From assembly GCA_038208115.1 (NCBI GenBank), contig JBBQZC010000004.1, forward strand, positions 10,530 through 74,529: DNA of 64,000 nt, written 5' to 3'. A program made the translations under genes and the position numbers. The notes under the pieces are model-generated. The model was not told the DNA's origin. It was given only the letters and a program-made list of their open reading frames with translations, and ran no database searches. The DNA is from Candidatus Moraniibacteriota bacterium (GTDB taxonomy: Bacteria; Patescibacteriota; Minisyncoccia; Moranbacterales; GCA-2747515). Shown one piece after another: positions 5,400 to 58,034 of the stretch (its first letter is position 1; the number at the start of each line of letters is the position of its first letter).

Positions 5400-6038
5400 T
5401 CAGTCACCATAATTGATCCACGACGTCAAACGGGTTTGTGCAAAAACACAATTTTGTGAAATTTTACAATCACGTTCCACATTGTCCGCACTCGGAAAAT
5501 TATTTTGTCCACCAAAGATCACCACGCTAGTCACTTTTGCTAAGACATCGTTTGGCGGGTCAACATTTGTTTTAGAATATTGTATGTAAATACGTCGTCG
5601 CAAATGTGAATCTTCATAGAGAGTCCCTCCTCCTGAATGTGAATACATACCAGTCTCTGTATTGAGATACAACTTATCATCAGGGCTTACGCCGCTACAA
5701 ACTAATCGTGAGGATGCACCTGATGTTGCATAATCTATCGTGCACGATGTGAAAGTGGAAACATTGTATGATGGCCAATTATAATCAGATTCTGGATCAA
5801 AAGCTGTACACCTTTCTGTTCCAGTACCACATGTTTCTTGTGTCACATTATTATCTCGCACATTTCGCACGAGTTCCACGCCTTCTTGTGCCAGAAGTGT
5901 CGCTATCACTGCATCGCGACTCCCTTTCATATTATCTATGCTACGCACAGTCAAAAAAACCGCATCTACAATGCCCACAAGCAATATGAACATCGCGACC
6001 ATCACTTCTCCGATTGAAAAACCCTTTTTATTCCTCAT
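5400..6038 (-). CDS. type IV minor pseudopilin (PilV-like)
   Basis: Prepilin-type N-terminus 'KKGFSIGEVMVAMFILLVGI'. Confidence 0.6.
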   Translation of the reverse strand: MRNKKGFSIGEVMVAMFILLVGIVDAVFLTVRSIDNMKGSRDAVIATLLAQEGVELVRNVRDNNVTQETCGTGTERCTAFDPESDYNWPSYNVSTFTSCTIDYATSGASSRLVCSGVSPDDKLYLNTETGMYSHSGGGTLYEDSHLRRRIYIQYSKTNVDPPNDVLAKVTSVVIFGGQNNFPSADNVERDCKISQNCVFAQTRLTSWINYGD

Positions 6039-6046
6039 ATATTATC

Positions 6047-6658
6047 TTAAAATACACACGCTACATCCGCATCATTGAAGCCAAGCTCTTCAATCAATCC
6101 CGTCGCATGCACACAAATATGAAATTTCCTCCCATCATTTAATATCAAGACTAGATCAGTCCCAATCGATGTTTCTTGACCATCAAAATATTTCCCATAC
6201 GGCACACCAAACGCCACAAAATTTGTGGAGACACGAGTACTTCCATTTGTTGCACTTGTAAACATTTCAATTGCAATCTTTTTTTGTGATAAATTTTCAT
6301 CGAGCAGTTTCTCCGTATATGACTGTGGATCATTATCATCAGCACACACCTCCTGTAACGCCCGATATGAACCTTTAATCTGATATGTGTCTCCATCACT
6401 TGTAAAAATAAAACCGCATGGCAACATATCACTTGCACGCTGCTTCCCTGTCAATGCATTATTTTGTGTCTCACGAATTGCCGCAGCAACTTCACGCCCA
6501 ACTGCTTCGAGTTTTTTCTTGTCACGATCTTTGAATGAGACGACAAACATCGTCAATGTCATAATCGTGATAATCGCGACGATGATAATCATCTCAAGAA
6601 ATGAAAAACCTTTTTTAGTCTGATATATTTTTTTTGTTTTTTGTACAATATTTTTCAT
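6047..6658 (-). CDS. type IV minor pseudopilin (FimT/GspH-like)
   Basis: Prepilin motif 'KKGFSFLEMIIIVAIITIM' after a longer leader. Confidence 0.55.
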   Translation of the reverse strand: MKNIVQKTKKIYQTKKGFSFLEMIIIVAIITIMTLTMFVVSFKDRDKKKLEAVGREVAAAIRETQNNALTGKQRASDMLPCGFIFTSDGDTYQIKGSYRALQEVCADDNDPQSYTEKLLDENLSQKKIAIEMFTSATNGSTRVSTNFVAFGVPYGKYFDGQETSIGTDLVLILNDGRKFHICVHATGLIEELGFNDADVACVF

Positions 6659-10159: not shown

Positions 10160-10811
10160 TTTTTTTCATAATAAGCATATATCCAGTTTTTTTAGGATTA
10201 TTTATACCAAAACGATGCAATACGTTAAAAATAACATAGAACGCCCATAATACTGTCTCAGCTGAATATGCAAATAATTGCTGCCGTCGATATACTAACG
10301 CAATTTTTTTATATGAAATCCTCATATCATCATACGTTCTTTGTGCTCCATCAGATTCTAAATAATGCAAAATGGCCTCCGGGTGATACGGTTTGACATG
10401 TGTAAAATCATTATAAAACCCATTGTGCAGCATAGGAGTTCTCAAACAAAATATGCCCCCAGGTTTCAAAACTCTATCAATTTCCTTTATTATGGCATAT
10501 GCTTCTTTTGGAAGTAAATGTTCAATAACATGTGCACAATGCACTGCGTCAAACTGCTGATCTTTAAAAGGTAATTGCGTAACATCACCTGAGATAACAT
10601 GGTATCCTTTCTGTTGACAAATCTTCAAACTTTTTTCATTTTGATCAATGCCCTCAATTCTTTTAGGATCATTACTAATAAATCTCCCTTCTCCACACCC
10701 AACATCTAAGATTTTTTTACAATTTATCATATATTTCAAAGCAATTTTATCCCGATCTGCTTTTTGATTATAAATCATTTTTTTTCTATATTTTTCTAAA
10801 AAAATATTCAT
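10152..10811 (-). CDS. class I SAM-dependent methyltransferase
   Basis: 'ILDVGCGEGRF' motif I, followed by 'FDAVHCAHVIEHL' and 'LKPGG' motifs. Confidence 0.65.
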   Translation of the reverse strand: MNIFLEKYRKKMIYNQKADRDKIALKYMINCKKILDVGCGEGRFISNDPKRIEGIDQNEKSLKICQQKGYHVISGDVTQLPFKDQQFDAVHCAHVIEHLLPKEAYAIIKEIDRVLKPGGIFCLRTPMLHNGFYNDFTHVKPYHPEAILHYLESDGAQRTYDDMRISYKKIALVYRRQQLFAYSAETVLWAFYVIFNVLHRFGINNPKKTGYMLIMKKNA

Positions 10812-10927: not shown

Positions 10928-11677
10928 ATGTCTGCTAGAAAAATCCAAAAAAAATCCAATATTGTCGTCTATACAGCCATATTTGGAAATTATGATGTGC
11001 TAAACAAAGTGCCTCACAATATTAATTGTGATTTTGTCTGTTTTACTGATAATTCTCAATTAAAATCAAAAAAATTTGATATTAGACTTGTAGAGTCAAC
11101 ACATTCCGATTCCACACGAAATGCTCGCATGTATAAAGTTTTGCCACACAAATTTTTATCAGAATATAAATATTCAATATGGATTGACGCTTCTATGAAA
11201 TTGAAAAAAAACTTTGATCCAGAAAAAATGATTGAGAAATATTTAAAAAATGAAAAGTTTGCAATTTTTAAACATGATGAGAGAGATTGCGTTTATGATG
11301 AATTTGAAATATGCATTAAACATAAAAGAGATAACGTCGTCGTCATGCAAAAACAGAGAGATTTTTATAAAGAGTCAAACTATCCGAAGCACACTGGGTT
11401 AGTTTCTTCAGGATTTATAATTCGTGAGCACAATGATCCACATATCTCAAACTTTGATGACATGTGGTGGAAAGAAATTTGTAAATTTAGCAAAAGAGAT
11501 CAATTAAGTTTTAATTATGTTGCACACAAAATTAATTTACACTACACAAAAATAGAAGGTAATATTTTTAATAACAAAAATTTCTTTTATGTTGGTCATA
11601 ATGGATTTACACCAAGATACCGTGCTTTTATGAAACACGCACTGACATTTCTCAATAAAATCAATCCTCTAAAATAA
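10928..11677 (+). CDS. DUF616-like putative glycosyltransferase
   Basis: 'VVYTAIFGNYDVL...CFTDN' resembles the TOD1/DUF616 family. It is the only plus-strand gene in the cluster. Confidence 0.35.
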   Translation: MSARKIQKKSNIVVYTAIFGNYDVLNKVPHNINCDFVCFTDNSQLKSKKFDIRLVESTHSDSTRNARMYKVLPHKFLSEYKYSIWIDASMKLKKNFDPEKMIEKYLKNEKFAIFKHDERDCVYDEFEICIKHKRDNVVVMQKQRDFYKESNYPKHTGLVSSGFIIREHNDPHISNFDDMWWKEICKFSKRDQLSFNYVAHKINLHYTKIEGNIFNNKNFFYVGHNGFTPRYRAFMKHALTFLNKINPLK

Positions 11678-49572: not shown

Positions 49573-50208
49573 TTAATATAGTTTCATGACAATTGGTGCA
49601 ACTCTTTTTACAATGATTTCATAACCTGCGTTATTGGGATGAACTGCATCTGACATATATTGCCTTTTCCCGAAGACATCCTGCAAAATATCCGAAACAT
49701 ATAGAGAGCCTGTTTTTTGTGCGAGGCTTTGATAATCATCTCCACGACCATCCCCGACCACACCACTTCGCACACCGACAAGGATAACAGCTGAACCATT
49801 TTCTTGAAAAAGTTTTATCATTGTCTCCAAATTGTGAAATGTGTCATCTTTCGGAATTTTTTTGAGCACATCATTACCGCCAAGGATAATCATAACGATT
49901 CCAGATTTTTCGCTCAAAGCGTGCGGAACTCGATCCACGGCATCTTGCGTGGTGTCACCGCTTCTTCCATAATTCAAAACAACTTTTCCCGTTTTTTCTG
50001 CAATCAAACTCGAAATATCATTTCCTTCCGTAGCACCAACGCCTTGTGCCAAACTATCACCAAAAACAACAATTGTATCATTTTTTGGCGGAGCATTTTT
50101 TATATTTATTTTTCTCCCAAATAAAAAATAACCACTCAAAAAAAGTAGAAAAATAGCCACTGAAATAAGTATGATTTTTTTCATATTATATATATTATTT
50201 AATATCAT
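49573..50208 (-). CDS. SGNH/GDSL-family hydrolase (secreted)
   Basis: Signal peptide and block I 'IVVFGDSLAQG', then 'GGNDV' and a C-terminal DxxH. Confidence 0.75.
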   Translation of the reverse strand: MILNNIYNMKKIILISVAIFLLFLSGYFLFGRKINIKNAPPKNDTIVVFGDSLAQGVGATEGNDISSLIAEKTGKVVLNYGRSGDTTQDAVDRVPHALSEKSGIVMIILGGNDVLKKIPKDDTFHNLETMIKLFQENGSAVILVGVRSGVVGDGRGDDYQSLAQKTGSLYVSDILQDVFGKRQYMSDAVHPNNAGYEIIVKRVAPIVMKLY

Positions 50209-50293
50209 AACATAAACTATTCATTGTGCTCCAATCATATAATTATAAAACACCACAATCTCTCCATGAGCTGTGGTGTTATGTATTGATCTC

Positions 50294-50962
50294 CTATATT
50301 TCAAATCCGCGCAAACAGGTACACGTTCCTCGTGTATGGTCTCCGAGATTTTCTGTTTCAAATTCCGCGATCTTTTTTTGAGCGATTTCATCACAAAACT
50401 TACTGCAGTAATACATATTTTGTTTATGTGCGTGTTCACCAACTAGATCATGCAAAAGGAAAATGCACTGAGTTGCTCTTCCGATATGACACGCATTTCT
50501 CATGCGCACATACTCCAATCGACAAAGTCCCTGCGCATTAAGATATAATCCAACAGAATTTGGATCACTTAGCTTTTTTGCATGGCACACATAGTCACCG
50601 CTCTTCAAAATAAATCTGGAAAGATCTGATTGCGACTGCGCCATCGTACCATTAAGATGTGTAGAAAATGCAGTAAACCATTCTACAATTTTTTGTAAGT
50701 ATGGATCATGTACATTACCAGTTTTGATAAATTCTTTCACATACTCATCATTAAGAGGCACTCCTGCACCATCATGATTATTACGTCGTTTCAAAAAAAC
50801 GTGTCCATATCCCGCATACACGCGAACACATTTCATATGTGCCAACACATGACAAAAAACTTGCCATAGATCATTTTTTGTACCAGATGCATTTATGAGA
50901 ATCCATTTTTTATCTGGTCCCATGCCATTAAATCGCATTACCCCTCTCTTGAGACCGATCAT
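50294..50962 (-). CDS. hypothetical Cys/His-rich protein
   Basis: 222 aa with many Cys and His ('CHVLAHMKC', 'NNHDGAG', 'NVHDPY', 'CTCLRGFEI'). No confident family assignment. Confidence 0.35.
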   Translation of the reverse strand: MIGLKRGVMRFNGMGPDKKWILINASGTKNDLWQVFCHVLAHMKCVRVYAGYGHVFLKRRNNHDGAGVPLNDEYVKEFIKTGNVHDPYLQKIVEWFTAFSTHLNGTMAQSQSDLSRFILKSGDYVCHAKKLSDPNSVGLYLNAQGLCRLEYVRMRNACHIGRATQCIFLLHDLVGEHAHKQNMYYCSKFCDEIAQKKIAEFETENLGDHTRGTCTCLRGFEI

Positions 50963-51090
50963 GGATTACCCCCTGTTTTAAAATGGTATTTTTTACTGTT
51001 AAACAACAATTAATTGCAAAGCATACCACATACATGTCTACACAGTCAACCAAAACCTCTACATTTGAAAAGAAAATCTTATAGAATAAA

Positions 51091-52692
51091 TCAGTTTGAT
51101 TTTTTGATAATGACAGATTTTTGCATCGCGCCATCGACTGTTTCAATAGTCTTAAATAAATCAGAAGGGTCAAATCCAATCAACCAGATACTTTTAGTTT
51201 CAGATCCACCAACCAGAAAGCACGGACTTATACCTTCTGCGCATGTTGGATTCTCTATTCTTATATTTTGACTGTTTTCAATCTCATACATTGGGCTACT
51301 TTCTGTTTCAATCTGAATATTATTCAAAAAAACATTTCTCGCATTTTTGATACTCACTGCTCGCGCAGATGAGACAAACGAGATGTCTTCGATGTGGATG
51401 TCTTCCATTACAGAATTTTTTAACCCATCCATATTGATAACTAATCGCTCACTCCCGCTCCCATATATATCCTTTATATAAATATTTTTGAGAATTGGCT
51501 TACTGGAAATAACTCCCTGGAGTTCAGTGGTGTATGCAAGATTAATGTCGATAGCATCGCCAGTCATATTTTCCATCGCGATATTTTCTACATATATATT
51601 TTCGATAAATCCTCCACGACTCCTCGTTGATTTGATTCGAAAACCATGTCGCGTATTTTGGAAGATACTATCACGAATATCAACATCTCTCACTCCCCCG
51701 GACATCTCACTGCCTATGGAAACGCCACTACTTCCTTTTACAACAGTGATATTTCGTATATGAATGTTTTCTGAAGGTTTTGCCACCCTCCAGCCATCTT
51801 CGTCCAATCCAGATTTGATCGAAATAGCATCGTCCCCAGTAGAAAAAAAGCTATTTTCAATAACGACATTTTTTGTTGAATCGATGACAATTCCGTCAGT
51901 ATTTCCACTCCATGTATCGATGGTCAAATTTCGCGCTGTAAAATTCTCTGAATAGATTGGATGAATTGTCCAAATCGGCCCATTCTCTACTGTAAAACCA
52001 TCCAAGGTAATATCCTTGCAATTCACAAATTGAATAAACGATGGGCGAATTCCAGGCTCCACATCACCAAAGATTCTTTTTTCTGGAGGCGTTCCTTCTC
52101 GAGACATTGTATATAATTTCTGTCGTGCTATTTCAAAATTTCCTTCACCAGTCCAATTTGCACGAGCATCTCCATTGCCAATCAACTTACCATTGCCTGT
52201 AATGGCAACATTTTGGCTATCTTTGGCATAAATGAGAGGAGAAAAATTATAAAATTCTATGCCTTGAAATCGCGTAAAGACGACAGGTAAATAATCCTGT
52301 AAATCTGTACTGAAAATGATTTCTGCGCCATCATCCAAAAAGAAATTAATATTGCTTTGTAATGTGATTGCCCCAGAAAACCACGTTCCCGCTGGAACAA
52401 AGACCAGACCACCTCCCTTGCTGGAGCAATCATCGATAGCAGCATTTATTGCAATCGTCGACTGTGATCCAGTCTGTGCTAATGCACCATAATCTCGGAT
52501 ATCACACACGATGTCAGGGATGCCGGGAACGATAACCGCATCGGAAATTGCAGAGATTGATGTGAATGACTCTTGCCGCACATCACTTACATTTTGTCCT
52601 TTAATAAAAATTTTTGGAAAAAAAATAAATGTAGAAACACCACAAAAAACAACGATGCCCGTACTCACCAAAATAATAGATGTTTTTTTCAT
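51091..52692 (-). CDS. glycoside hydrolase family 28-like (pectin-lyase-fold beta-helix) secreted protein
   Basis: Signal peptide. 'GGGLVFVPAGTWFSGAITLQSNINFFLDDGAEI' and repeated 'NGDxxxNxxI...' coils are typical of polygalacturonase-like right-handed beta-helices. Confidence 0.7.
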   Translation of the reverse strand: MKKTSIILVSTGIVVFCGVSTFIFFPKIFIKGQNVSDVRQESFTSISAISDAVIVPGIPDIVCDIRDYGALAQTGSQSTIAINAAIDDCSSKGGGLVFVPAGTWFSGAITLQSNINFFLDDGAEIIFSTDLQDYLPVVFTRFQGIEFYNFSPLIYAKDSQNVAITGNGKLIGNGDARANWTGEGNFEIARQKLYTMSREGTPPEKRIFGDVEPGIRPSFIQFVNCKDITLDGFTVENGPIWTIHPIYSENFTARNLTIDTWSGNTDGIVIDSTKNVVIENSFFSTGDDAISIKSGLDEDGWRVAKPSENIHIRNITVVKGSSGVSIGSEMSGGVRDVDIRDSIFQNTRHGFRIKSTRSRGGFIENIYVENIAMENMTGDAIDINLAYTTELQGVISSKPILKNIYIKDIYGSGSERLVINMDGLKNSVMEDIHIEDISFVSSARAVSIKNARNVFLNNIQIETESSPMYEIENSQNIRIENPTCAEGISPCFLVGGSETKSIWLIGFDPSDLFKTIETVDGAMQKSVIIKKSN

Positions 52693-52839
52693 AGATTTTA
52701 TTCTATAATTTTAGCATATCCATTCTTTACACAGCTTCCATTAAAAATACCAGAATCACCATTTCCATTGTGAAACTTCTTTTTTTCTATATTAATTCTT
52801 TCCATAAAAAATGATAATTATATTTTAATGATATCACAA

Positions 52840-52870
52840 AAAATCACACATCTAATTAATGTGTGATTTT
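52840..52870 (-). terminator. Rho-independent terminator
   Basis: aaaatcacaca-tctaattaa-tgtgtgatttt hairpin with flanking A and T runs, downstream of the alpha/beta hydrolase gene. Confidence 0.5.
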
Positions 52871-52919
52871 ATTCCCGAAGAGAGTAAAAATATGATAGCA
52901 CTTTTTATGACTGATATAT

Positions 52920-53813
52920 TTAATCATTAGCAAATCTTTTTTTCAACCATCTCAAAACCAGATTGGATAGCTCATATTCTTTATTAACATACATATGATT
53001 CGCCCCATCTAAAATTGATAGATCAAAGTCAGTGCAACTAGTCGCTTTTTGTTTGATAAGATTCAGATCATCTTTTAATGATCGAATAATAATATCATCA
53101 TGCTCTCCCATAAATGCAAAAATTGGAATATGGATTTGTGACAATTCCTCAAAAACATCAGGATTTCTCAATAATGGCAGATTATCAGCAAAGCTGCCAT
53201 CTACACATAAATCAAGAAATGTCTGCGAACTGATAAAATACCATTCCCAAAGCATTGAATGTAAAATCTTTCTGCAATCTCCATTTTCCACATTTTTTCG
53301 AGCCTCTATCAACATTTCATCATAATTTGGTTGGTATTTTTGTAATTTAGAAAGTCCCACCATATCAGGAGGTGACGCTAATATTATGCCAGATACATTG
53401 TTTTGATTATGTACTAAATAATGAATTATTTTATTACAACCCAAACTGTGTCCCATGAGTATGATCTCTTCATACCCAATATTTTTTGCTTGATTAATCC
53501 ATAAATCAATATCATAAGAGCATTCCTGAAATCGTTCGTAAATTTGACCAATTCTCACTGTCTTGTCACCTTCCATATCCAACGTTCTGATGTCATTTAT
53601 ATGTCCAAACCCCCTATTATGTCCAAAGATAAAACCATAGCCACTCTCAGATAATTGGTCCCCAAGAATTTCTGCAAAATAATTTTCGATAATATTTTCA
53701 GACATGCCATGTATCAATATCACACATGTTTTTTTCAATGCAGATTCCCAATGAAATCCCTGCAAATTAAGATTGTCTTTCGTGTAACCATGTAAAATTT
53801 TAACATGTGTCAT
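52920..53813 (-). CDS. alpha/beta-fold hydrolase
   Basis: Nucleophile elbow 'LMGHSLGCN'. His and Asp lie in the C-terminal third. Confidence 0.7.
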   Translation of the reverse strand: MTHVKILHGYTKDNLNLQGFHWESALKKTCVILIHGMSENIIENYFAEILGDQLSESGYGFIFGHNRGFGHINDIRTLDMEGDKTVRIGQIYERFQECSYDIDLWINQAKNIGYEEIILMGHSLGCNKIIHYLVHNQNNVSGIILASPPDMVGLSKLQKYQPNYDEMLIEARKNVENGDCRKILHSMLWEWYFISSQTFLDLCVDGSFADNLPLLRNPDVFEELSQIHIPIFAFMGEHDDIIIRSLKDDLNLIKQKATSCTDFDLSILDGANHMYVNKEYELSNLVLRWLKKRFAND

Positions 53814-53949
53814 AGGAATACTAATTATATTTATATGAGCAAATCATATCACAAAAAGTTATCCATCTCTACCTTCCTATGCAAAAATTGACTATTCAGA
53901 ACAGTCCTAGCTACATACTTTTGAACATAAAAAATGTCACAATATAAAC

Positions 53950-53977
53950 AAAAAACACACATTAAATGTGTTTTTTT
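53950..53977 (-). terminator. Rho-independent terminator downstream of the Cys-rich membrane protein gene
   Basis: aaaaaacacacatt-aaatgtgttttttt hairpin. Confidence 0.45.
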
Positions 53978-54047
53978 GCATTCGCGGAGAGGGTGGGACG
54001 ATGTTGGAACGTTTTTAGAAGAGAATAAAGAATTCTATTACATTACA

Positions 54048-55343
54048 TTATAAAGTTTCATTACATTTTTCTGAAAAAACACATCCGTTTTTAGTACATC
54101 TCAAATTTTCCATTCCACTACATTCAGGATAATTTTTACAGTCCAAAGTATAACTCCATTCACCATCATTATAATCAACAATCCATTTTGCATCACTTTG
54201 AACTTTTCCGCAAGAATCTCCGCCTATAAAAGGCCAACTCATCGGACTATATCCCGGACAAATAAACCCCAATCCATTTTCTGTTCCCTTTATGATACCT
54301 CCATTCCCGTCACACTCTTTAGTATACTGTAATGCATTTTTAACTGATTTTTTTATTGTGGATACCTGAGAAAATCTTTGTGACCTAACATGAGTCGTAT
54401 CGCCATTGGTAACTTCTTCTTGAAGTATCTCTTGATATCTTTCATATTCGCTTATTTCCCTATTTTGCAATTCAGAATTTTGCACATCACTGTGACTAAT
54501 TTTTTCAGCATCCCTTCTTTTTAGTTCATCTTCACAATCACTCCTTTTTTTGCCCCATGGCATTTTATGACACCTGCTCTGATTAACCTCCTCATAACAC
54601 TCTACTCTTATGTTCTCATTTTTTACTAGGTCGTCACAAATACTCTTATTCACCTTTTCTTCCGCAAAATCAACATAACAATATTCTCTATCAGTTTCAT
54701 TGAGAATACCATCACATTGAGTCGCATTAACGTAATTTTCCTCTTCATAATCAAAAATAACACTCTCATAGCACATTTTTTTATCATACTGTGATTTTAT
54801 TTTTGCACATATATTTTCATCTCTATATCTGTAAGCTTTATTATCGTAACAAGCATCCTTCTCATCATTAGCAAAATAATCGCAGTTATCCAATCTAATA
54901 GCTATAGATCCCATAATAATGAAATTCAATATGAATAAAATGAAAAAGGTACCAGCAATAATTTTATACCTGCTAATATTGTATTTAGATTTAACAGCTC
55001 TTCCTATATAAGAACCAGCGATAACACTACCAATAATGCCAGGAAATACTAAAATTAAAAAGAAAGGTATTAGCATTACTACTAAAGATGCGGCAAGACC
55101 AATAGAGATAATAATACTACGTATATATTTTTCAGTTGCCAGTGCAGACAAAAAGCCAAGTTGTAAAAAGATTACATAGAAATATGACTGGTATCTATTA
55201 ATACCCATTACGCCATAAAAATGATTAAATATAGCAATACTTGCTCCATAAGAAAAAAGGATCAGAAGTATTAAATAAATATCTAGATTTCTTATTAAAT
55301 GGCGTCCTGCCGCATTATTAAAATACTGCATATTACTTTTCAT
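54048..55343 (-). CDS. membrane-anchored cysteine-rich repeat protein (hypothetical)
   Basis: N-terminal 4-5 TM helices. External domain has four ~30-aa repeats with a 'CY...IC' spacing, plus a C-terminal Cys-rich module ('CDGNGG...CPGY...CGK...C'). Confidence 0.45.
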   Translation of the reverse strand: MKSNMQYFNNAAGRHLIRNLDIYLILLILFSYGASIAIFNHFYGVMGINRYQSYFYVIFLQLGFLSALATEKYIRSIIISIGLAASLVVMLIPFFLILVFPGIIGSVIAGSYIGRAVKSKYNISRYKIIAGTFFILFILNFIIMGSIAIRLDNCDYFANDEKDACYDNKAYRYRDENICAKIKSQYDKKMCYESVIFDYEEENYVNATQCDGILNETDREYCYVDFAEEKVNKSICDDLVKNENIRVECYEEVNQSRCHKMPWGKKRSDCEDELKRRDAEKISHSDVQNSELQNREISEYERYQEILQEEVTNGDTTHVRSQRFSQVSTIKKSVKNALQYTKECDGNGGIIKGTENGLGFICPGYSPMSWPFIGGDSCGKVQSDAKWIVDYNDGEWSYTLDCKNYPECSGMENLRCTKNGCVFSEKCNETL

Positions 55344-55468
55344 TTTTATATAACTATAAATAAATTATATCATAAATTTTTACACAAAAAATCATATATG
55401 GGTTGTGTGATCTTGTTGGCGGTGTTTCTTGGACGAAGTTGGAACTTTTTTGATGAATTTTGATATTA

Positions 55469-56514
55469 TTACTTAGCTACTAATTTTTCATGTACCAACT
55501 GAATTTGTTCTACCATATCAGCCACCACAGCATCTTCCATATTATTTACCAGTGGCACTAATGACATAAATAGTACATCGCCTTCCACTACAAGATCAAT
55601 ACCTAATTGTAATGCGATTTCTTTGCATTTCAATTGAAAATTGCTGGAAATTTTCCAACTGTCTCCATCAATTTCTTGAACTAAAAGCCAAAATGGTGTG
55701 TTTGCATTTTTGCCCATAGATCCATTTTCATACAAACTGCAAATCCTATATTTTCTATGCCAAAATATCTATGATAACCACCATATCTCTGAGCTGTTCT
55801 ATTCAGCATATGCATATCACCCCCTAATTGATTATTCAATTCATCCACCACATTATCCACAATATCATAATAAGAGTGAATTTGTTTTGGGATATCTTGT
55901 GATAAATCTTTATCCATAATTGGTTTAAATGAATTATTATCTATTATATCGCAGAAGCCTATTATTTGATTAACGTCAGAAATCAAAAATGGATCGTTCT
56001 CATATGTCATTTTTGATTTGATTTGATTGAGAACTTTATTCCAACTTTTAAACAAAATGTATTGATTAGTCGATACAATTCTTATTTTTCTTTTTTTTGC
56101 ATCAACTTCAATACCTGAATATTCTTTTTGTATTTTTTGTAAAACTTCATCAAAAACAGCTCTTATTCTTAAGGTTGGCACTAAAAAAATCAGAACTGTA
56201 TCATTATCCAATCTCTCCAAATATCCACTTGGTTGATTGTGTGTCAAAGATGCCCAAAACTTAGCTTCAATTAAAACTACTTCTTTACCATCCTCATCTA
56301 CCCCACTTATATCAGGTCGTTCTAAATTATCACCAGAACTTTGATTCTTATATAGCAATTTAGGAAAAGTAAGATCCGTATTTGAACTAATAATTTCATT
56401 AATCACATTTCCAGATTCAATTGAATTATTTAAAATATAAGCCAAACCCTCAGATGCGATATCCTCTTGAGAACCTTTGATTTTATTATAAAATAATCCT
56501 AATAATGATTGCAT
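55469..56514 (-). pseudogene. PD-(D/E)xK-like nuclease-fold protein, apparently split by a frameshift (55681-56514 and 55469-55735 overlap)
   Basis: 'GVDEDGKEVVLIEAKFW' fits D...ExK. The 277-aa and 88-aa ORFs overlap by 55 nt in different frames. Confidence 0.3.
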
Positions 56515-56520
56515 GTCTAT

Positions 56521-56859
56521 CTACTTTTTATCTGGTAAAATATTGTGTAATTTCTTGTATGCATATGTATTTTCTTCAGTACACCGATTAATAATATCAC
56601 CCATATGCCAATATGTTAATCCATCATATTTGAAATATTTTTGTTTTGTATCATAAAAAAAATCATCATATCCGTAAACATCAATATGATTTGCAAGGTC
56701 TAAAAATAATTCATTATCAACATTCTCCTGGACAATGTATTCATGAGGCCATGTATCTGCATAGGTTTTGGCAAATATCCATTCCTGATCTTCAATGAAT
56801 TCCTTTATTTTTTTTGATAATTCTTTTTTCATTTCATCGTATATTAATATAATCATCAT
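56521..56859 (-). CDS. hypothetical protein
   Basis: 112-aa intact ORF adjacent to tRNA-Ser. Confidence 0.4.
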   Translation of the reverse strand: MMIILIYDEMKKELSKKIKEFIEDQEWIFAKTYADTWPHEYIVQENVDNELFLDLANHIDVYGYDDFFYDTKQKYFKYDGLTYWHMGDIINRCTEENTYAYKKLHNILPDKK

Positions 56860-56904
56860 ACCACAAAAAGTTCTAGCGTCCCTACCTCCCTATTCAAAAA
56901 AGCC

Positions 56905-56929
56905 CATTAAAATGGGCTTAATTTCTTCG
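56905..56929 (-). terminator. Rho-independent terminator downstream of tRNA-Ser
   Basis: agcccatt-aaa-atgggctt hairpin followed on the minus strand by T6. Confidence 0.5.
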
Positions 56930-56939
56930 CGGAGAGGGA

Positions 56940-57028
56940 GGGATTCGAACCCTCGGACCGGTTTGACCCAGTCAACTGATTTCGAGTCAGTCCCATTCGA
57001 CCTCTCTGGCACCTCTCCATTTATTCAA
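56940..57028 (-). tRNA. tRNA-Ser (anticodon CGA)
   Basis: Reverse complement gives GGAGAGG acceptor stem, anticodon stem ACTGA/TCAGT with loop CTCGAAA, long variable arm, T-arm GAGGG-TTCGAAT-CCCTC and discriminator G. CCA is not encoded. Confidence 0.85.
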
Positions 57029-57043
57029 TATTTTTAACTTGTT

Positions 57044-57208
57044 CGTGTAATCTTTTTAATCAATTTTTGAAATGCCGAATACTCTTTTGTATATACGGTT
57101 TTTTCTTCTTTTTGATCTGAATCATCGACTATATCGCTATAATCATCTTGTGTTATCTCCTCAGAATCACTTTTTTGACCCTTATCATGTGTATTCATAA
57201 TATCGACA
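57044..57208 (-). CDS. possible small acidic protein (54 aa)
   Basis: Manual translation gives MNTHDKGQKSDSEEITQDDYSDIVDDSDQKEEKTVY... with no SD. Confidence 0.15.
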
Positions 57209-57242
57209 ATGGTATCACAATAATCTGAAATTGTCTTGCTTG

Positions 57243-58034
57243 CTACCCAAAAGTCATAAAATTTGCACTTTCATATCGTTTCACAGATTTGTGGAAAAAA
57301 TAGAGAGCAAACACAAGCCATGCAGAAGTGATTGCACATAAGGTAATCGCATTTTGCAAAGATGCGGATTTGAGAATTTCTGCAGGCAATGCTCCGATGA
57401 CAAGTGATGGGATAAGAAATGTATACACAAACCGCATAACGCCGTGAAAAATGCCTCCGTGAAAAAGCGTCGGACTCATAAAAAGATCGAAGAATCCATA
57501 TGTCACAGAAAACGCATCGGTAAAATAAAAACTCATCGAATAAATTATGACGCTCGCAGCAAAAAACATCACAATCGCATTGCCTGCGAGCAATATCACC
57601 ATGAGTAGCTGAACCAATGAAATTCCAGCCATGGCAAAATATACGCCAAAACAAATAATACCAAACAACACATCCCCAACTGCCGATGCGTGGAACACCG
57701 ACGTTGCCACTCGCACAAGTACATTTTTAGGAGAAAGTAAGAAACGATCAAAAGAACCCTCTGCAACATATTGAGGTAATCGTCGCACACCCGAAAAAAA
57801 GGAAAACATAATTCCATAAGAAAATGCGACAAATCCATTCATCCCCACGATATCAACGACTCGCCAACCATTAATCTCACCAACTGATTGCACAAAAATT
57901 ATCCACGTTGCAATGAACGCACCATTATTGATGGCCATGCCGATTACCGTCAGAGTAAAGCTCGTACGAAGCTCAATACCATTTTGAATATTTTTTTTAA
58001 TTGCATAGAATGCAAATTTCAATTCTTTGAACAT
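57243..58034 (-). CDS. ABC-2 family transporter permease
   Basis: Six TM helices, immediately downstream of a paralogous permease and an ABC ATPase. Confidence 0.55.
   Translation of the reverse strand: MFKELKFAFYAIKKNIQNGIELRTSFTLTVIGMAINNGAFIATWIIFVQSVGEINGWRVVDIVGMNGFVAFSYGIMFSFFSGVRRLPQYVAEGSFDRFLLSPKNVLVRVATSVFHASAVGDVLFGIICFGVYFAMAGISLVQLLMVILLAGNAIVMFFAASVIIYSMSFYFTDAFSVTYGFFDLFMSPTLFHGGIFHGVMRFVYTFLIPSLVIGALPAEILKSASLQNAITLCAITSAWLVFALYFFHKSVKRYESANFMTFG

Follow-up and report, generated by a model that had tools for sequence, protein, structure and literature searches.

The window analysed here, a stretch of 64,000 nucleotides (nt) from contig JBBQZC010000004.1 of Candidatus Moraniibacteriota bacterium (positions 10,530 to 74,529 of the forward strand), contains an intact tRNA-Ser(CGA) gene followed by two short gene-bearing units, each of which ends in a site of about 33 nt with a tail that resembles the 3' end of a tRNA. 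On balance, we favor the interpretation of this region as an integrase-less array of two gene cassettes that was built on the 3' end of the tRNA gene by site-specific recombination, with the enzyme acting in trans. The same site recurs in co-oriented arrays of small units, typically behind tRNA genes, in many genomes and metagenomes; its tail matches the local tRNA, homology between loci starts and stops at the site, individual cassettes are shared by otherwise unrelated arrays, and no tyrosine, serine or Y1 recombinase was detected in the vicinity.

On the tRNA strand, which is the minus strand of the window, the order is tRNA-Ser(CGA), terminator, cassette A, site 1, cassette B, site 2, terminator. 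The elements of the array are listed below (ORF, open reading frame; aa, amino acids; loci used for comparison are designated by L numbers).

56929/56930-57018, minus strand: tRNA-Ser(CGA), intact, the anchor at the head of the array (ARAGORN; Rfam RF00005, 56.1 bits, full model covered).
56926-56943, minus strand: identity core common to the tRNA end and the distal site, TCCCTCCCTCTCCGCGAA on the tRNA strand.
56896-56920, minus strand: terminator-like hairpin and T-run straight after the tRNA, AAGCCCATTTTAATGGGCTT TTTT (read from the sequence; hairpin present in the fold).
56865-56895, plus strand: inverted degenerate site-like sequence AAAAAGTTCTAGCGTCCCTACCTCCCTATTC, recognized by reading and kept at the start of the relative L004 (~64-90).
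55453-56864, minus strand: cassette A, with a 112-aa ORF (56521-56859) and a truncated PD-(D/E)XK-like gene (55681-56514, 55469-55735).
55416-55452, minus strand: cassette site 1 (the third copy), AAAAAAGTTCCAACTTCGTCC followed by the degenerate Ser-like tail AAGAAACACCGCC; 33.9 bits.
54018-55415, minus strand: cassette B, with the promoter-like sequence TGATATAAT and a 431-aa membrane/Cys-rich ORF (54048-55343).
53981-54017, minus strand: cassette site 2 (the distal copy), AAAAACGTTCCAACATCGTCC followed by the tail CACCCTCTCCGCGAA; 45.4 bits.
53951-53977, minus strand: terminator-like hairpin past site 2, in a flank homologous to the flank behind tRNA-Ser(GGA) in L005.

The plus-strand sequence TTCGCGGAGAGGGAGGGA (56926-56943) is made up of the final 14 nt of the tRNA plus 4 nt of flank, and recurs at 53981-53998 with a single mismatch; two matches to this core in the window compare with 0.01 expected, and none of 100 shuffles reached two. 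The preliminary description of this region had recognized the repeat, which is real, and placed it 10 nt away, at 56936-56954; the one mismatch that it reported holds over the 18 nt of the core and becomes two over the 19 nt that it compared. Its third copy (55416-55451) and the 21-nt block GGACGAWGTTGGAACKTTTTT that this copy shares with the distal one (53996-54016 and 55431-55451) proved accurate, with a chance expectation of 0.00 matches. Within the window, the identity with the array's own tRNA end extends into the flank for a total of 13 nt, CCCTCTCCGCGAA. Scored with a 36-nt weight matrix derived from other genomes, sites 2 and 1 reach 45.4 and 33.9 bits, whereas 10 shuffled windows gave no score above 10.2 bits. 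The presence of two consecutive units between the tRNA and site 2 is in line with the two sequential insertions that the preliminary description gave as one of its options. Site 1 lies 17 nt past the stop codon of the upstream ORF. The Islander-type configuration, that is, an intact tRNA gene with a displaced, direct partial copy of its 3' end, is thus present (18 nt, one mismatch). We also considered a tRNA pseudogene or a second tRNA as the source of the repeats and rejected this possibility because ARAGORN, as well as Rfam at E <= 10, detected only one tRNA in the window.

The two copies belong to a widespread family. The site consists of an A-rich prefix and GTTCCAACWTCGTCCCA, followed by 10-12 nt that imitate the 3' strand of the acceptor stem together with the first bases of the flank; the most common form is A.AAAAGTTCCAACATCGTCCCA followed by.AC.GCCAGC. 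A scan for exact AAMGTTCCAACWTCGTCCCA in genomes, one per species, yielded at least 119 stretches, and a scan of metagenome contigs for the exact 20-mer yielded at least 120, so that the block AAAGTTCCAACWTCGTCCCA with a tail resembling a tRNA 3' end has at least 119 genome and at least 120 metagenome matches, most of them labelled as Patescibacteria. Among the matches listed, 80 loci divide into about 59 with names from Patescibacteria lineages, about 15 with other names and 6 unclassified; the lineage names include Paceibacteria, Nomura-, Morani-, Wolfe-, Kaiser-, Lipton- and Falkowbacteria, Microgenomates and 'Saccharibacteria'. Labels from outside the candidate phyla radiation (CPR), such as Gammaproteobacteria, Micavibrio, Bdellovibrionales and Pseudomonadales, are attached to L011, L025, L030-L032, L042, L043, L045, L046, L060, L069 and L080. 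Several of these odd labels are probably wrong, including that of the 'Micavibrio' contig, which has an 87.5%-identical stretch in common with L004. No match to the site was found in 2.9 million viral contigs, phage records and plasmid records.

The tails fall into classes that resemble the 3' ends of particular tRNAs: ..GCCAGC (Gln), ..CTCTCCGC (Ser), ..GGCCCGC (Asp) and ..CCCGAC (Pro), along with Ile- and Lys-like forms. The Gln form aligns with the region of tRNA-Gln from the T-loop to the 3' end; by inspection, GTTCGA-----TCCCTAGTCTCCCAGC of the tRNA is matched by GTTCCAACATCGTCCC-AGACTGCCAGC of the site, which carries a 5-nt insertion. In some lineages, the sites vary in concert, as in L052, where GTTCGAACATCATCCCA + TACAGCTAGCA is repeated.

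The site has no intrinsic fold (z = -0.13 and -0.04 for the DNA folds), the inverted-repeat content downstream is 7.46 of 12 compared with 7.28 of 12 in the upstream control, and the complement of the tail within the 200 nt upstream scores 4.90 compared with 5.00 in the control. A tRNA-like minihelix or t-element was rejected given the lack of a tail complement upstream. A long attC-like palindrome as a general feature was rejected as well, since only a few Ser-type sites (L011, L019) and the surroundings of the window's tRNA show it. There, the tRNA 3' end, the terminator and the inverted copy at 56865-56895 can pair as one long imperfect hairpin; the fold around the inverted copy (-15.1 kcal/mol, z = -1.4) is not significant. 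An inverted element of this kind also occurs behind some Ser-type sites (L011, L019), but not generally. Rfam 15 gave no match at the sites of the window (E <= 10) or, at gathering score, in 8 array loci. In the exact-match scans, the only clearly variable positions in the 20-mer and just behind it (2, 11, 20 and 23) are spaced by multiples of three, in one codon phase on both strands. A coding origin was considered and appears unlikely, given that no ORF passes through the sites and that the periodicity ends after position 23; the third-base pattern may be a coincidence.

Arrays of such sites are common. At a threshold of 14 bits, the weight matrix detected 312 sites in 122 genome loci and none in the shuffled loci, and none of the 122 loci has sites on both strands. 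The median spacing between sites is 630 nt (interquartile range 476-816 nt), with up to 8 sites per 8 kb; the pattern was replicated in the metagenome loci, where sites lie 568 nt apart (median) and number up to 10 per array. The longest ORF occupies a median of 79% of the unit and is co-oriented with the site in 133 of 190 units. The stop codon typically lies 15 nt ahead of the site (median), often overlapping the A-rich prefix, and the next start codon is found 23-54 nt past the tail. Genes on the opposite strand, such as the NERD gene in L004, sit within arrays of unchanged site polarity. Many tails are directly followed by sequences that, by eye, resemble TTGACA...TATAAT promoters. The cargo families listed are small enzymes, among them HAD hydrolases, NUDIX, SDR, histidine phosphatases, GNAT acetyltransferases and methyltransferases; they include no phage or recombinase genes. 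Short contigs end near a site in 25 cases compared with 15.2 expected, a modest excess. After several Gln-type tails (L022, L039, L085, L123, L049/L055), we observed a recurrent hairpin-bearing element of about 60 nt (for example, ccaactcgtgctaggttatcgcgctcgagacg...cttagcaaaac), which has no Rfam match at gathering score and could be an undescribed leader or small RNA.

The arrays are closely linked to tRNA genes. In the loci taken, 101 tRNAs are located on the site strand and 12 on the opposite strand. The nearest upstream tRNA, assigned for 81 loci, is tRNA-Gln in 51, tRNA-Ser in 15 and tRNA-Asp in 7, with Pro, Lys, Ile, Asn and Ala together accounting for the remaining 8. The tail class fits the type of this tRNA in 27 of 28 cases for Gln and in 8 of 10 for Ser. 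The match goes beyond the type: when tails were compared with tRNAs of the same type, the mean longest common string was 6.18 nt for a tail and its own tRNA and 5.02 +/- 0.16 nt for tRNAs from other genomes, a value of 6.18 nt being reached in 0 of 500 permutations. Rare endings are shared by the tail and the tRNA in individual loci, namely TAGC in L052, GAGC in L071, CAAC in L097, CCCCAACCCA in L034 and GAAC in L203, as well as CCAACCCA. Identities of 10-14 nt that extend into the flank were found in L028, L034, L071, L076, L180 and L219, and the identity often reaches 4-6 nt into the flank (L028, L076, L071, L180, L219). Deeper in the acceptor strand, the tails diverge from the local tRNA, which suggests that the crossover, if any, occurs at the extreme 3' end, leaving the tRNA functional.

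The site is also a breakpoint of exchange between loci. An all-against-all DNA comparison of the oriented loci produced 394 homology blocks. Among 316 internal starts of blocks, 20 fall within a few nt of a site start in both partners (expected count 0.005 for random positions), and among 327 internal ends, 21 coincide with the end of the tail in both partners (expected count 0.035). In L049 and L055, for example, the sequences are 91% identical over 1978 nt from the site onward and are preceded by different cassettes. Similarly, L161 and L199 are 98.7% identical over 1888 nt from the site onward; before the shared stretch, one of these loci has a tRNA-Gln and one cassette, and the other has different cassettes. 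Conversely, L025 and L046 share a stretch of 1562 nt (93% identity) that ends at the tail. Single cassettes flanked by two sites are common to otherwise unrelated arrays in four pairs of loci (L010/L074, L016/L077, L052/L232 and L014/L108), which indicates that the cassette is the unit that moves; the cassette in L010 and L074 encodes, judging by its sequence, a HAD hydrolase and is 78.6% identical between the two. The shared cassettes do not fix the position of the crossover given that the tails differ about as much as the cassettes do. Together with the tail-tRNA matching, these homology breakpoints bear out the notion, advanced in the preliminary description, that the copies act as recombination junctions tied to the tRNA 3' end.

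From these observations, we infer a mechanism that would involve site-specific catalysis, a circular intermediate, a defined crossover position and a trans-acting enzyme. Under this model, the mobile unit would be a small piece of DNA, usually with one gene and often with its own promoter, that ends in the ~33-nt site. A recombinase encoded elsewhere would join the site on the incoming, presumably circular, cassette to the 3' end of a tRNA gene or to a resident site. The tRNA would be left intact, the new cassette would adjoin it, and the older cassettes would be displaced distally, so that repeated insertion would produce co-oriented arrays. The reverse reaction, or a reaction between sites, would delete and reshuffle cassettes. 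In the window, cassettes A and B, between tRNA-Ser(CGA) and site 2, would be the products of this process.

The recombinase search covered the tyrosine, serine and Y1 classes across about 240 loci (~1.56 Mb in total). The jackhmmer queries were E. coli XerD, IntI1, lambda Int, gamma-delta resolvase and IS608 TnpA; as a control, the XerD and IntI1 sequences recovered one another (E = 1e-27). In the window and 127 loci, no tyrosine or Y1 recombinase was detected, the only hits being two marginal resolvase matches (E ~0.005), and the 120 metagenome loci contained no recombinase match at E <= 1e-3. For 101 ORFs located upstream of sites, the listed Pfam families (the 25 most common of 154) include no integrase and represent housekeeping proteins and small enzymes. 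A recurrent neighbor of the arrays was considered as a candidate recombinase and rejected: the most common one, located upstream, appears from its sequence to be DnaX-like (DNA polymerase III gamma/tau), and the others are ordinary enzymes.

Several observations weigh against the interpretation of the window as a cassette array built by site-specific recombination. No recombinase was found, so that catalysis is purely inferred. The site has neither the dyad symmetry that is usual for the cores of tyrosine and serine recombinases nor an attC hairpin. For 82 of the 139 exact-motif instances, there is no tRNA in the upstream stretch taken, which can plausibly be explained by long arrays. Part of the breakpoint enrichment is expected, the site being the only conserved island between divergent cassettes, although the long homology blocks are not trivial. 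The invariance of the 20-mer is partly imposed by the exact-match scan. Many cassettes seem to have their own promoter right after the tail, which is compatible with a regulatory site. At the window's own locus, a circular cassette, an empty site and an insertion polymorphism within the population were not observed, and in the other assembly of the same strain (L001/L002), which has the same arrangement, the contig break falls inside the tRNA.

Among the alternatives, the one that fares best, even if it appears unlikely, is that no dedicated recombinase exists: the tRNA and the 33-nt site would serve as short anchors for RecA-mediated exchange or unequal crossing-over after DNA uptake, and the site would be conserved by some other function. 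This explanation accommodates the lack of a detected linked recombinase, the absence of dyad symmetry, the concerted lineage-specific variants in L052, and the fact that the breakpoints can be mapped only to 'within the site'; furthermore, the window encodes RecA and type IV pilus/competence-type genes. However, anchors of 20-33 nt would only just reach, or fall short of, the length that RecA usually needs for efficient exchange. The imitation of the particular head tRNA by the tail, rare endings included, and the constant co-orientation with that tRNA are left unexplained, and an additional function, itself without explanation, is needed for the conservation of the 20-mer.

It is improbable, in our estimate, that the site is primarily regulatory or acts at the RNA level, as an operator, a UP-like element, or a 3'-end processing or stability signal that marks gene boundaries. 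The location of the site a short distance past stop codons (median 15 nt) and 23-54 nt ahead of the next start, the promoter-like sequences that are apparent by eye behind many tails, and the strong conservation of a linear, unstructured sequence, which suits a protein-binding site, all speak for such a role. Yet a regulatory signal would not be expected to co-vary in its tail with the 3' end of the neighboring tRNA, to form arrays that start at tRNAs and keep the tRNA polarity even around opposite-strand genes, or to coincide exactly with breaks in homology and bound cassettes that are shared singly. The absence of a tail complement upstream that would form a tRNA-like minihelix and the lack of a match to any Rfam family also speak against it. 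A regulatory role could, nonetheless, coexist with recombination.

The origin suggested in the preliminary description, namely, an old islet that lost its integrase, appears still less probable. In this scenario, one or two ordinary tRNA-targeted elements would have left neutrally decaying attL/attR scars, in keeping with the intact tRNA and the displaced direct partial copy of its 3' end, the AT-richer cargo, the broken cargo gene, and the classical exact tRNA-fragment duplications in L064 and L030 (see below). Neutral decay, however, cannot explain why the 20-mer occurs unchanged in hundreds of contigs that belong to many lineages, mostly labelled as Patescibacteria (at least 119 genome and at least 120 metagenome stretches). 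The repeats are better read as functional sites because a neutral scar would not stay identical across divergent lineages. Moreover, the units are single genes of about 0.6 kb in arrays of up to 10, no integrase or fragment thereof was found in about 240 loci, and the site is absent from the viral, phage and plasmid records searched. Finally, classical integrons or clusters of attC sites lacking integron integrases (CALINs), in which the repeats would be attC, can hardly be the explanation: co-oriented single-gene cassettes separated by a repeated site, a cargo spectrum like that of chromosomal integrons, and sites that are uniform in each lineage, like those of sedentary chromosomal integrons, are set against the lack of IntI or any other tyrosine recombinase near the arrays, a site that is not an imperfect palindrome (7.46 compared with 7.28 of 12; fold z ~0) and is conserved in sequence rather than in structure, and an array head that is a tRNA 3' end, not attI.

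If the window is indeed a cassette array built by a trans-acting recombinase, the system can be compared with several known ones. Integrons and CALINs likewise consist of co-oriented, mostly single-gene cassettes, each ending in a repeated site, with presumed insertion at the head, small diverse enzymes as cargo, lineage-specific variants of the site, and individual cassettes shared between arrays. Here, in contrast, no IntI or attI was detected, the head is the tRNA 3' end, the site is a linear 33-mer without the R/L-box hairpin, many cassettes apparently have promoters of their own, and the enzyme would be unlinked.

Elements that target tRNA genes and accrete in tandem include the CIMEs of Streptococcus and the islands catalogued by Islander. 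In the tycheposons of Prochlorococcus, newer insertions push the older ones outward, with partial tRNAs separating them, and the elements carry a tyrosine or large serine recombinase along with replication or packaging modules (bioRxiv 10.1101/2020.12.28.424599). As in the arrays described here, the tRNA target of such elements stays intact, partial tRNA copies lie between the insertions, and variable islands form beside tRNA genes. Unlike these arrays, the elements are kilobases long, carry a tyrosine or serine recombinase or derive from elements that do, and have att sites that are plain tRNA copies. In the present case, the units are about 0.6 kb, no recombinase was found, and the 20-mer, which is independent of the tRNA, is unchanged across many Patescibacteria lineages.

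Xer-dependent modules, such as IMEX and the pdif modules of Acinetobacter plasmids, are small, lack a recombinase, are bounded by short conserved sites, and use the host recombinase in trans, and in these respects they are similar to the cassettes. However, neither the 11-6-11 layout of dif-like sites, in which the arms are partly palindromic, nor their conserved XerD arm TTATGTTAAAT was seen here by eye; pdif sites alternate in orientation, whereas the sites described here are strictly direct; and the dif modules have no tie to tRNA genes. REP/BIME repeats, which are maintained by RAYT transposases, resemble the site in being short, conserved intergenic repeats that follow stop codons and depend on an unlinked enzyme. 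These repeats are palindromic and occur genome-wide in hundreds of copies. The site, by contrast, is non-palindromic, and all copies seen so far are clustered in arrays that mostly follow tRNA genes. In the ~1.56 Mb searched around the arrays, no Y1 transposase was detected.

More tentatively, the arrays might represent a dedicated gene-capture system of many Patescibacteria lineages, perhaps of the entire phylum, that differs in mechanism from integrons in using an unlinked, conserved host enzyme, a linear 20-nt signal with an acceptor-like tail, promoter-bearing single-gene cassettes, and the extreme 3' ends of tRNA genes (Gln, Ser, Asp, Pro, Ile, Lys) in the role of 'attI'. Such arrays could supply much of the turnover of accessory genes in these minimal genomes, and the enzyme could belong to a class that is new to cassette capture; there is a substantial chance that the enzyme, and hence the mechanism, is new. 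Neither the site sequence nor a cassette system of this type was found in the searchable literature, where an integron-like system of this kind appears to be undescribed. To our knowledge, Patescibacteria (CPR) have tiny genomes with few recognizable mobile elements. The gain and loss of accessory genes in these bacteria are poorly understood. If true, the interpretation proposed here would provide a concrete and testable route of gene flow in many Patescibacteria lineages. The site is an exact DNA signal that can be searched for and would allow the 'cassette pool' of uncultured lineages to be surveyed; paired with the tRNA 3' end, it also defines substrates for candidate recombinases. Should the enzyme prove new, this would be a second, independently evolved integron-like system, which could provide a compact tool for site-specific integration. 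For genome annotation, the implication is that partial tRNA ends of this type should not be named decayed prophage scars.

The locus itself was compared with close relatives, the contigs of which were obtained by a search for homologues combined with exact protein matches (L003, L004 and L005-L008); no orthologous loci were found by protein in the species-representative genomes. The comparison relies on the following flanking features.

57034-58034, minus strand: left-hand anchor conserved in the relatives, consisting of a 54-aa ORF and an ABC-2 permease immediately ahead of the tRNA.
50209-53950, minus strand: distal variable part, with an alpha/beta hydrolase (52920-53813), GH28 (51091-52692) and a 222-aa ORF (50294-50962).
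49573-50208, minus strand: GDSL lipase (Pfam), the right-hand anchor, with orthologues beyond the variable genes in L003, L005 and L006.

The ABC-2 permease is 87% identical to that of the window in L003, 74% in L004 and 67% in L005-L008, and its homologues carry the names Parcubacteria, Paceibacterota and Moraniibacteriota. Such names are also found in the 90%-identity cluster of the window's PilT, which assigns the window to a Patescibacteria (CPR) genome. In L003 and L005-L008, the ABC operon is followed by the same 54-aa ORF and, right behind it, by tRNA-Ser(CGA); in L004, the tRNA follows different genes, and the GDSL lipase orthologue is elsewhere on the contig. Wherever the contig reaches that far, the genes behind tRNA-Ser(CGA) are wholly different among the relatives. 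The part of the site that is not derived from the tRNA, AAAAMGTTCCAACWTCGTCC on the tRNA strand, is present in every relative (L003, L004, L005), always downstream of a tRNA-Ser (CGA or GGA); 1-3 unrelated genes separate it from the tRNA, and a Ser-acceptor-like tail follows it. Relatives with the same genes at this tRNA and no repeats, which would have spoken against an insertion, were not seen: the relatives hold different genes plus the site. In the comparison proposed earlier as a way to find an empty site, L003 and L005 carry different cargo between the same tRNA and the GDSL lipase, and no relative in which the tRNA directly abuts the anchor was found. The homology between the flank of site 2 and the flank behind tRNA-Ser(GGA) in L005 suggests a common cassette-start module.

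Because the GDSL lipase is the right-hand anchor in L003 and L005, the variable region extends from 56929 to 50208/50209, beyond the interval delimited in the preliminary description. The hydrolase, GH28 and 222-aa genes are missing between the tRNA and the GDSL lipase in L003 and L005, and in L039 a homologue of the alpha/beta hydrolase is carried on a cassette. All genes as far as the GDSL lipase may represent earlier cassettes whose sites have decayed; the weight matrix detected no significant site in 50209-53950. A third degenerate site at 52872-52907, after the hydrolase, was considered and rejected, as its 64% identity is not above chance and it has no support from the matrix.

The account given earlier of the interval between the copies holds up in its particulars: the cargo is a membrane/Cys-rich ORF, a broken PD-(D/E)XK-like gene and a small ORF; neither Pfam nor jackhmmer found an integrase within the interval; and windowed analysis confirmed its AT-richness, with a GC content of 0.27-0.35; upstream of the tRNA the values are about 0.36-0.42, and the distal side is more mixed (0.25-0.43). 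No record was found with the exact sequences of the 431-aa and 112-aa ORFs. The PD-(D/E)XK-like gene has a weak match to PDDEXK_4 (Pfam, E = 0.0047) and appears to be broken or truncated here because its homologues are 344-356 aa long. The two-gene pair of cassette A is also found in L248, in an unrelated context with neither a site nor a tRNA, and so provides no support for the mobility of the PD-(D/E)XK cargo as a cassette. The contig of L248, which contains the closest intact PD-(D/E)XK homologue, also has a short Y1_Tnp (IS200-like) ORF (L248 573-866). The 431-aa protein of cassette B has no Pfam family. Its C-terminal 135 aa (54048-54452) are 78.5% identical to the C-terminal end of the DKNYY-repeat protein that the second cassette of L003 encodes (5942-6346; L003 is the relative with the 87% identical permease), and the N-terminal parts of the two proteins are unrelated, which points to domain swapping inside a cassette gene.

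Some loci carry additional fragments of tRNA genes. In L005, right after tRNA-Ser(CGA), a degenerate fragment of a tRNA 3' end, tggagaaagggagcgggattcgaactgg, lies in the reverse orientation (11150-11190) and looks like another recombination scar at the same hotspot. Downstream of the tRNA-Gln in L064, there is an exact 45-nt copy spanning the tRNA from the anticodon stem to the 3' end, along with a further 15-nt copy, and downstream of the tRNA-Ser in L030, there is an exact 18-nt copy of the tRNA. In both loci, these copies are positioned between the tRNA and the first cassette site, and ordinary integrase-type events may have occurred there as well. In the window at large, RecA, LigA, FtsK and type IV pilus proteins are among the Pfam families listed for the larger ORFs, and no integrase is. 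Finally, 51 of the 56 ORFs of at least 150 aa are on the minus strand, the GC skew is negative across the window, and the array has the same polarity, a pattern consistent with the location of the window on one replichore with a strong gene-strand bias.

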